The notes beneath the pieces were generated by a model that saw only the letters and a list, made by a program, of their open reading frames with translations, had not been told where the DNA came from and searched no databases. From a virus, in IMG/VR virus record IMGVR_UViG_3300045988_141926, positions 64,380-128,379 of that record: a stretch of DNA of 64,000 bases; one strand, written 5' to 3'. Both the position numbers and the translations under genes were made by a program. Within the stretch, counting starts at the first letter, position 1. The number at the start of each line of letters is the position of its first letter. Of the stretch, positions 25,253 through 26,065 are shown in pieces.

Positions 25253-26065
25253 AGGTCATTGGTGTAGCGGCTAGCATAGCGGTCTCCATTTGAAAACTTA
25301 ATATTATTCCATAAAATAACGTGTTAAGTGAAAATTTAATTAAAGGTTAGATAATTGAATTAAAAGTTCAAATTGAATTTTTGCGGTATGGATTTAATAT
25401 TTCTGTTCCAACTTATAATTCTTCAAAATATGATTTATTAGTTGATACAGGGACAGAATTATTAAAAATTCAAATTAAAAAATCTATAAGTAATTCAAAA
25501 TCATCATTTACATTTCCTTGTACCACACAAAATGTGAAAAGTTCTTTAGGAAGTAAGCATAAATATACAAATGATGAAATTGATTATTTTGCGACTGTAT
25601 GGAATGATAAAGTGTATTTAGTGCCTGTTGATGAAACATCTTTACAAAAAACAATTTCTTTTGATGATGAAACTTATTTAATAACAAATATGTTTTCACA
25701 ATATAAACAGTTATCTGATGAAGAACTATATAATTCTTCTCATAAAGAAAAATTTTATTGTAAAGACTGTGGATGCGAAATTAATCCAGGCTCTCTCCGA
25801 TGTATTCCTTGTAATAATAAACTTTTACGAATGGCAGAAAGACCTTCTAGAGAAGAATTAAAAAATTTAATTCGCAATAAACCTTTTACTCAAATAGCAA
25901 GAAAATATAATGTTTCTGATAATGCTGTGCGAAAATGGTGTGATAGTTATAATTTGCCTCGTAGAAGTGGAGATATAAAAAAAATTGGAGAGGAGGATTG
26001 GAATAATATTTAAGCATTTTAGATGGAAACCGCGGACCTAGGTTCGAGTCCTAGATGGCCTGCCA
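25253..26065 (+). tRNA. tRNA-Trp(CCA) interrupted in anticodon loop by ~738-nt insertion (putative group I intron 25289..26026)
   Basis: 5' exon AGGTCAT-TG-GTGT..GCAT-A-GCGGT-CTCCA matches tRNA-Trp anticodon arm; 3' exon AA-ACCGC-GGAC-CTAGGTTCGAGTCCTAG-ATGGCCT-G-CCA. Confidence 0.55.
25381..26013 (+). CDS. intron-encoded PD-(D/E)xK-type homing endonuclease-like protein with C-terminal Zn-finger + HTH
   Basis: YDLLVD..LLKIQIKK nuclease motif; DEIDYFATVWNDKVYLVPV shared with 42348..42761; CKDCGCEINPGSLRCIPCNN; PFTQIARKYNVSDNAVRKWC HTH. Confidence 0.5.
   Translation: MRYGFNISVPTYNSSKYDLLVDTGTELLKIQIKKSISNSKSSFTFPCTTQNVKSSLGSKHKYTNDEIDYFATVWNDKVYLVPVDETSLQKTISFDDETYLITNMFSQYKQLSDEELYNSSHKEKFYCKDCGCEINPGSLRCIPCNNKLLRMAERPSREELKNLIRNKPFTQIARKYNVSDNAVRKWCDSYNLPRRSGDIKKIGEEDWNNI

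Follow-up and report, generated by a model that had tools for sequence, protein, structure and literature searches.

How can a tRNA gene whose anticodon loop is interrupted by an entire homing-endonuclease gene still give rise to a tRNA? The question is raised by a tRNA-Trp(CCA) gene in the 64,000-nucleotide stretch of viral DNA analyzed here (the window; positions 64,380 to 128,379 of the IMG/VR record IMGVR_UViG_3300045988_141926) and by a tRNA-Gly(UCC) gene interrupted in the same manner further downstream. An earlier note, made from the letters of the DNA without database searches, had likened the interrupted tRNA-Trp to the cyanobacterial tRNA-fMet gene with its group I intron and the homing endonuclease I-Ssp6803I. 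We found that neither insert contains a ribozyme, and that the ends of the inserts form, together with the anticodon, a selected RNA structure that is re-tailored to each target tRNA. The reading that we favor, with about equal prospects of being right or wrong, is that of a mobile intron removed from the transcript by protein-dependent cutting and rejoining.

The exons and the insert of the tRNA-Trp(CCA) gene could be read directly from the sequence, as the earlier note had it: a 5' exon (aggtcat tg gtgt agcggcta gcat a gcggt ctcca) and a 3' exon (aa accgc ... atggcct g cca) are separated within the anticodon loop by 738 nucleotides (nt), and ARAGORN recognized the exons joined in silico as a canonical 75-nt tRNA-Trp(CCA). 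In its intron mode, this program recovered the gene at 25253..26065 with a 738-nt intron, whereas standard ARAGORN and Rfam searches missed both split genes; ARAGORN places introns imprecisely, and the junctions were recomputed from stem geometry. The note had ascribed the same arrangement to the tRNA-Gly gene, which is indeed split with an endonuclease gene, although its coordinates had to be corrected (the gene ends at 42813 instead of 42816, and the insert at 42774 instead of 42777); its joined exons form a canonical 76-nt tRNA-Gly(UCC) according to ARAGORN. Uninterrupted alleles of both genes are present in sister phage contigs from the same metagenome, and their letters correspond exactly to exon 1 followed by exon 2. 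The empty-site allele of tRNA-Trp (contig L090) shares 98.4% identity across 314 nt of flanking sequence, with the junction GCGGTCTCCA/AAACCGC, and that of tRNA-Gly (contig L100) is 97% identical, with the junction TCTGCCTTCC/AAGCAGA. The inserts are therefore exact, with neither duplication nor loss of letters, and both are precise, optional and recently mobile.

The open reading frames (ORFs) of both inserts matched Pfam PF11645 (PDDEXK_5; E-values of 3.5e-14 for Trp and 9.9e-24 for Gly), in agreement with the proposal that they encode PD-(D/E)xK homing endonucleases. They belong to the I-Ssp6803I/PDDEXK_5 family, including the catalytic D...QxK motif, and the Gly-intron protein aligns with I-Ssp6803I itself (PDB 2OST, E 1.8e-5) with the YDL..D and LQVK motifs conserved. 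A Zn finger and a C-terminal helix-turn-helix (HTH) had also been predicted for the Trp protein; both the CxxC...CxxC pattern and the HTH are visible in the translation, the latter with weak support, namely a Pfam HTH match at E 6e-4 and 47 nt that share 87% identity with homing-endonuclease genes of Enterococcus phages. This HTH resembles DNA-binding modules of other phage homing endonucleases. The true start of the Trp ORF is a GTG at 25321, and the in-frame TAG at 25348-50 is read through. A relative 70% identical to it (L011) has CAA (Gln) at this position, so the TAG most likely encodes Gln. In another phage, the place of a conserved N-terminal Glu (KGxxxE) is taken by an in-frame TAG in a two-domain protein related to the Trp-intron endonuclease (L028, 401-1190); either this phage does not read TAG as Gln, or the residue can be dispensed with. 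The assignment of these enzymes to the homing-endonuclease family is secure, and they are predicted to cut empty-site DNA; the empty-site alleles of the sister phages lend indirect support to cutting of the intron-less allele.

No group I, group II or small-ribozyme model of Rfam matched at the gathering threshold, no ribozyme match was obtained over the Trp locus (25150-26200) at E<=10, and none was obtained at E<=0.1 in five related introns, among them a 99% copy of the Gly intron. The group I model RF00028, on which the earlier reading depended, gave no signal, while a genuine tRNA group I intron used as a positive control (L031) was detected with 76.3 bits, directly 3' of a PDDEXK_5 ORF. 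On these negatives, with that control alongside, group I, group II and every ribozyme in Rfam were rejected; for group II, no Domain V/VI match was found and the ORF encodes a nuclease, not a reverse transcriptase. The inserts also leave little room for a catalytic RNA: their non-coding parts amount to 32+13 nt (5'+3') in Trp and 29+13 nt in Gly, and to 13-34 nt (5') and 0-15 nt (3') in 30 related introns, compared to 185 nt in the control, and a group I core needs about 200 nt or more. A ribozyme hidden within the ORF was ruled out by synonymous-site variation, which is flat along 15 Gly-intron ORFs (59-95% nucleotide identity), with an entropy of 0.37-0.70 and a dip to 0.30 solely in the first window, at the start codon. 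The splice sites do not look like those of group I either. The nucleotide before the 5' site, expected to be U, is A36 in Trp and C36 in Gly, and a G at the end of the intron is present in Trp and absent from Gly, where the intron ends in T (A in relatives). In favor of group I, the endonuclease family and the anticodon-loop site match those of the Synechocystis tRNA-fMet intron, and the last nucleotide of the Trp intron is a G. However, the Synechocystis intron has its own group I core 3' of the ORF, as L031 does, whereas the Trp and Gly introns have none and end instead in a rod that pairs to the anticodon. We regard a group I identity of the inserts as scarcely credible.

Relatives of the intron proteins were gathered by protein searches across IMG/VR, metagenomes, GTDB genomes and GenBank phages, with split tRNAs located by ARAGORN, and nearly all of these relatives lie inside split tRNA genes. 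The set comprises 35 distinct introns in 10 anticodon classes (Trp CCA, Gly UCC, Asn GUU, Thr UGU, Arg UCU, Lys UUU, UUA, Ser GCU, Ile UAU and Ala UGC), which come from megaphages, contigs of metagenome-assembled genomes and the cultured Enterococcus phage EFP01. Insertion is between nucleotides 36 and 37 in 35/35, always before A37, and A38 follows in all except L109. Across the whole set, the intron ends in three nucleotides that complement the anticodon (the anticodon-complement rule): pairs 35:-2 and 36:-3 are formed in every intron and pair 34:-1 in 23 of the 35, the exceptions being U·U in Gly. Continuing this helix, intron nucleotides 1, 2, 3 and so on pair with nucleotides -4, -5, -6 and so on. 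Covariation was tested on an ungapped alignment of 29 introns with a 15-pair structure, in which 94.9% of the cells are paired compared to 35-51% after a shift of the 3' partner by 1-3 columns, and changes on both sides occur in 13/15 pairs. The covariation score of 0.825 was reached by none of 500 shuffles (0.215 ± 0.022). The pairs that involve the intron include 36 G·U and no A·C, and the helix has therefore been selected in RNA of the tRNA-sense strand and not as an inverted repeat in DNA. In the minimum-free-energy fold of the complete Gly precursor (532 nt), the cloverleaf is retained and the rod closes off the intron (z = -4.3).

From the tRNA outwards, the rod runs from the anticodon stem (27-31:39-43) through a C32·A38 mismatch and a U33:A37 pair to the three anticodon:intron pairs, and then through 7 base pairs (bp) of intron:intron helix (nucleotides 1-7 with -4 to -10; 6 bp in Gly) to a sequence-conserved 1x2 internal loop in which an A faces C-A (..AA[A]CUU.. 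/ ..AAG[CA]UU..). Beyond this loop, an outer helix holds the stop codon of the ORF, and the 3' untranslated region is almost always 12-14 nt long. The A/CA loop is usual, not universal, at 6-7 bp along the helix among the 35 introns: a second group (EFP01, L058, L064 and L060) has (C/U)UGACC / G(C/U)UGAU(G/U) in its place, which reads CUGACC / GCUGAUG (box D/box C-like) in EFP01, and L057 has GAA/GAA. The likeness of the second group to box D/box C hints at a possible k-turn, which is no more than a lead. The two splice sites (36/i1 and -1/37) lie on opposite strands, 3 bp apart, in two-fold symmetry about base pair 35:-2. Counting outwards from this pair, the anticodon stem ends 8 positions away on one side and, in most classes, the internal loop lies equally far on the other.

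A stem that served the end of an mRNA would have no need to track ten anticodons or to cross both junctions exactly, which is why we take the rod to exist, probably, to present both junctions for exact removal. The mobile intron that we favor would comprise hardly anything besides a homing-endonuclease gene and two ends complementary to each other. At the DNA level, its I-Ssp6803I-type enzyme would cut uninterrupted tRNA genes of co-infecting phages at the anticodon loop, and repair would copy the element in, exactly between nucleotides 36 and 37. Once transcribed, the element would prolong the anticodon stem into a single rod, with the tRNA body on one side and the A/CA loop on the other, that a protein endonuclease would recognize and cut on both strands. 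The two-fold symmetry suggests a dimeric nuclease, and the candidates would be a dimeric double-strand-RNA nuclease of the host, a further phage enzyme or the protein that the intron itself encodes. RNA-repair enzymes of the phage would afterwards seal the tRNA halves, which the cloverleaf would keep in place; the candidates for this step are the RNA ligase, the kinase and the phosphoesterases encoded in the window, and RtcB in EFP01.

The case of EFP01 (NC_047796) extends this comparison to a cultured phage. At about 105.24-105.78 kb (L039, 1432-1967), its genome carries an unannotated tRNA-Asn(GUU) gene split at 36/37, and the intron ORF, annotated as the "hypothetical protein" gp109, is a PDDEXK_5 protein 39% identical to the Gly-intron protein. 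A ROOL RNA (265 bits) lies 0.5 kb downstream of this gene. EFP01 encodes RtcB (gp162; PF01139, E 3e-59) along with phosphoesterases, whereas the window holds an ATP-dependent ligase, a kinase and phosphoesterases instead. Both repair sets would suit ends with a 2',3'-cyclic phosphate and a 5'-OH, which would argue against RNase III or a metal-dependent homing enzyme as the nuclease. Neither EndA, RtcB nor RNase III was found among the window ORFs scanned, nor EndA or RNase III among the EFP01 genes near RtcB, and the EFP01 annotation lists no EndA.

Several points weigh against protein-dependent removal. The splicing itself, the enzymes involved and the chemistry of the ends are what we infer, and no nuclease to carry out the cuts was found among the approximately 40 ORFs scanned in the window, which is part of a genome. 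No characterized RNA-processing enzyme would account for cuts staggered by 3 bp in an uninterrupted helix: the stagger of RNase III is 2 nt, and splicing endonucleases require a bulge-helix-bulge. As the sole nuclease, RNase III is possible, but it predicts a stagger of 2 nt where the observed geometry is 3. Large phages commonly carry RNA-repair genes for other purposes, for instance to counter anticodon nucleases. Intact exons alone are no proof of function, because the empty-site alleles show that the inserts are recent and optional, and a search of IMG/VR for Gly mini-introns consisting of the rod without an endonuclease gene returned none. The wider claim, that phages and possibly their bacterial hosts own a helix-directed, protein-dependent form of RNA splicing in which RtcB or a heal-and-seal ligase reseals the halves, falls somewhat short of an even chance in our estimate.

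Alternatively, the inserts may not be spliced at all. They would then be selfish insertions by which an endonuclease gene has killed dispensable tRNA genes, and the helix would serve the endonuclease mRNA, for example as an RNase III site, a protective stem or a translation gate. The presence/absence polymorphism shows the tRNAs to be optional carriers, the outer helix, which holds the stop codon and the 5' untranslated region, could control translation, and no splicing enzyme was found among the ORFs scanned. We nevertheless consider this unlikely: a stem at the end of an mRNA has no need to enter the exon, the last three intron nucleotides have been re-tailored to 10 anticodons with the helix always crossing both junctions exactly, and Gly and Trp would be the sole amino acids missing from a near-complete tRNA array. 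A new small self-cleaving or self-splicing RNA, in which the rod, the A/CA loop and the tRNA body cut both junctions to leave 2',3'-cyclic-phosphate and 5'-OH ends for sealing by RtcB or by a kinase, a phosphoesterase and a ligase, is less probable still. Both phages have repair systems for such ends, the loop motifs are conserved across endonucleases just 30-45% identical, a weak match resembling the hepatitis delta virus ribozyme (30 bits, E 0.04) directly follows a tRNA in L011 (237-291), and recoded gut phages are said, in work on theta ribozymes, to use small ribozymes in tRNA processing. Even so, some 45 nt of mostly regular helix are very little for two precise cuts, no Rfam ribozyme matches, and at least two or three loop motifs (A/CA, CUGA/UGAUG and GAA/GAA) occupy the same place.

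It would be geometrically attractive for the intron-encoded PD-(D/E)xK enzyme to cut both the DNA, in homing, and the RNA rod, in splicing. We think this improbable, above all chemically: an active site of the metal-dependent DNase type (D...QxK) would leave 5'-phosphate and 3'-OH ends, which RtcB cannot join, the right half of the rod is unlike the DNA target, and we know of no PD-(D/E)xK homing enzyme that cuts duplex RNA. An archaeal-type bulge-helix-bulge intron, processed by an EndA-like endonuclease encoded elsewhere in the phage, has in its favor the pairing between anticodon and intron, which is reminiscent of pre-tRNAs in archaea and eukaryotes; homing-endonuclease genes do occur in archaeal introns, and ligases for cyclic-phosphate ends are present. 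Nonetheless, no register with two 3-nt bulges separated by 4 bp could be found when Trp and Gly were worked by hand, the hosts are bacterial (Prevotella-type and Enterococcus), and no EndA domain was seen in the ORFs scanned. The motif was rejected on the continuous, covariation-supported helix from U33:A37 through 34-36:-1..-3 to i1-i7:-4..-10, and we give an intron of this type almost no chance. Four further candidates were discarded: a DNA-level target-site duplication with a 3-nt stagger, which predicts a direct CCA...CCA and not CCA...TGG; excision at the DNA level, which would leave non-complementary overhangs; mimicry of RNase P or external-guide substrates, as the splice sites lie within the helix and there is no NCCA tail; and a hammerhead ribozyme, to which CUGAUG...GAAA in introns of the EFP01 type might point, since both stem II and a UH at the cut are missing.

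Introns of bacteria and phages are thought to be self-splicing, of group I or II, and protein-spliced tRNA introns to be a hallmark of archaea and eukaryotes. Archaeal bulge-helix-bulge introns, some with LAGLIDADG genes, and eukaryal tRNA introns resemble the introns described here in being free of ribozymes, in pairing with the anticodon and in offering a pseudo-symmetric substrate; they are spliced by proteins and their exons are rejoined by RtcB or heal-and-seal ligases, as we propose may happen here. They differ in having two 3-nt bulges 4 bp apart, usually at position 37/38, whereas the phage introns have a continuous helix with splice sites 3 bp apart at 36/37 and occur in phages of bacteria, with no known splicing endonuclease. 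Phage T4 reseals, with Pnkp and Rnl1, a break made in the tRNA anticodon loop by the anticodon nuclease PrrC; there too a phage kinase/phosphatase and an RNA ligase act on the anticodon loop, but the damage they mend is inflicted by the host and no intervening sequence is removed. Among phages, the tRNA introns of Lak megaphages have been called enigmatic and assigned to no Rfam class (Devoto et al. 2019, PMC6784885; Crisci et al. 2021, PMC8346664), and were observed again in 2026 (PMC13037316). They likewise interrupt tRNA arrays of TAG-recoded gut megaphages with inserts outside any Rfam class, but as reported they are short and ORF-less, and no endonuclease gene, helix rule or mechanism was described for them. 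The closest conceptual precedent is SOS splicing, in which paired transposon terminal repeats trigger excision from animal mRNA, after which the ends are joined by RTCB (Zhao et al. 2025, PMC12779559), and whose authors ask explicitly whether prokaryotes have an equivalent. In both cases the element is mobile DNA and the signal would be the pairing of its two ends, a hallmark that is present in the transcripts studied here. SOS splicing, on the other hand, is eukaryotic, imprecise and host-encoded, while the phage excision would be exact to the nucleotide, with the pairing tailored to each tRNA.

According to a 2014 review, all phage introns known at that time interrupted protein genes (PMC3984707), and our search of the literature, which was incomplete, returned no account of endonuclease-bearing tRNA introns without a ribozyme, of the anticodon-complement rule or of a mechanism. 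Mobile endonuclease-bearing tRNA introns as such are already known; there is a substantial chance that their mode of splicing here is new. The endonuclease-bearing class now has a testable anatomy, namely a site at 36/37, an anticodon rule, a covarying rod that contains both splice sites and no ribozyme, and such introns hide phage tRNA genes from standard annotation. If splicing were confirmed, it would be a new RNA-processing activity in bacterial systems, and, if the proposed mechanism is true, these introns would form a third class of tRNA introns, next to group I and bulge-helix-bulge, and their removal would be the prokaryotic equivalent of SOS splicing in animals, which depends on RtcB. 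They would also give the RtcB and RNA-repair enzymes of bacteria and phages a splicing substrate, which would bear on what RtcB is for.

Coordinates within the window of the split tRNA genes, their rods and other features discussed in the text.
Feature	Position	Strand	Basis or remarks
tRNA-Trp(CCA) 5' exon, ending at anticodon nucleotide A36	25253..25288	+	Sequence, ARAGORN, empty-site allele L090
Trp rod, 5' strand	25285..25301	+	U33, C34-A36, intron nucleotides 1-7, unpaired A8 (25296), C9 U10 U11 A12 A13
Trp insert (intron), 738 nt, between nucleotides 36 and 37	25289..26026	+	Sequence, empty-site comparison
Trp endonuclease ORF, 230 amino acids: PDDEXK_5 core, CxxC..CxxC, C-terminal HTH	25321..26013	+	Pfam, translation
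Trp rod, 3' strand	26010..26027	+	Outer helix including stop TAA (26011-13), bulged C A (26015-16), 7 nt pairing to intron nucleotides 1-7, TGG (26024-26) pairing with the anticodon, A37 (26027) with U33
tRNA-Trp 3' exon (A37 to CCA)	26027..26065	+	Sequence, ARAGORN on joined exons
Suppressor tRNA(CUA)	38777..38850	+	Needed for the TAG in the Trp-intron ORF and for many TAGs of the AT-rich genes
tRNA-Gly(UCC) 5' exon, ending at C36	42282..42318	+	Sequence, ARAGORN, empty-site allele L100
Gly rod strands	42315-42335 and 42754-42775	+	Sequence
Gly insert (intron), 456 nt, between nucleotides 36 and 37	42319..42774	+	Sequence, empty-site comparison
Gly endonuclease ORF, 137 amino acids, PDDEXK_5 only	42348..42761	+	
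tRNA-Gly 3' exon	42775..42813	+	Sequence, ARAGORN on joined exons
NinI-like metallophosphoesterase, the second of two	54998-55783		phrog_246, E 1.1e-38
Nucleotidyltransferase	57463-58269		
ATP-dependent RNA ligase, candidate exon joiner	60161..61531	+	phrog_968, E 5.6e-62; TIGR02306 and PF09414 weak
Polynucleotide-kinase-like P-loop kinase, candidate for 5'-end healing	62742..63245	+	phrog_505, E 9e-27; bacterial Pnkp kinase domain, E 1.3e-14
Metallophosphoesterase, running off the window, candidate for 3'-end healing	63245..64000	+	phrog_547, E 4e-43

The window originates from a huge, TAG-recoded gut phage, whose genome, of which the window is a part, is likely larger than 400 kb. An 830-amino-acid vault-like protein (51247-53739), with the shoulder and repeat domains of major vault protein, has matches limited to the uncultured phages LR756500-03, of 462-735 kb, at about 41% identity. 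Long ORFs with 2-12 in-frame TAGs each appear in a block of 21% G+C (14-26 kb) once TAG is taken as sense, whereas the genes of 40% G+C contain no in-frame TAG; the window therefore holds two classes of genes that differ in composition and coding. Blocks of 21% G+C extend over 14000-26000 and 34000-36000, with ORFs that are continuous only if TAG is sense, and their products include radical-SAM/SPASM-like and glycosyltransferase-like proteins. Near the end of the window, the RNA-repair cassette (54998-64000) has a serine hydroxymethyltransferase gene (58858-60069) in its middle.

The tRNA array (26.7-43.6 kb) contains 26-27 tRNAs, the suppressor tRNA(CUA) included, and Gly and Trp are represented in it by the interrupted genes only. 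A third interrupted tRNA (37665-37861, + strand) has an ORF-less insert of 121 nt in its anticodon loop. ARAGORN assigned it to Glu(UUC) split at 36/37, and with another boundary it would be Gln(UUG) split at 35/36, an amino acid otherwise absent from the array. The ends of this insert pair (cgagaaa/tttctcg) without obeying the anticodon-complement rule, no Rfam match was found in it at E<=5, and it resembles the "enigmatic" Lak introns. In a sister megaphage (L001, 235-671), a tRNA-Leu(UAA) gene carries an ORF-less insert of about 351 nt, apparently at 34/35, the classical group I position, with a U before it and a G at its end; no Rfam family matched this insert at E<=5. A RAGATH-33 RNA (685-813, 127 bits) adjoins that tRNA-Leu, and the tRNA-Leu(UAA) of the window (41728-41813) is uninterrupted, unlike that of L001. 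In contig L074, a PDDEXK_5 ORF lies within a tRNA-Tyr(GUA) gene, flanked by non-coding RNA of 113 nt on its 5' side and 45 nt on its 3' side, and here again the anticodon-complement rule is not obeyed.

Unusual members of the array are a tRNA-Phe with the anticodon AAA (30086-30158), a tRNA-Ile with UAU (31682-31756) and an extra tRNA at 29873-29942, which Rfam reported with 35.8 bits and on which ARAGORN was silent. A free-standing HNH endonuclease ORF with two in-frame TAGs (27030-27611, + strand) is located between tRNA-Asn and tRNA-Leu and abuts the start of the latter, and a similar HNH tail terminates the ORF at 13433-14134. The array also encloses transporter-like genes at 31933-33108 and 35434-36030, an unusual cargo for a phage, which belong to the sodium:dicarboxylate symporter (E 5e-83) and formate/nitrite transporter families.

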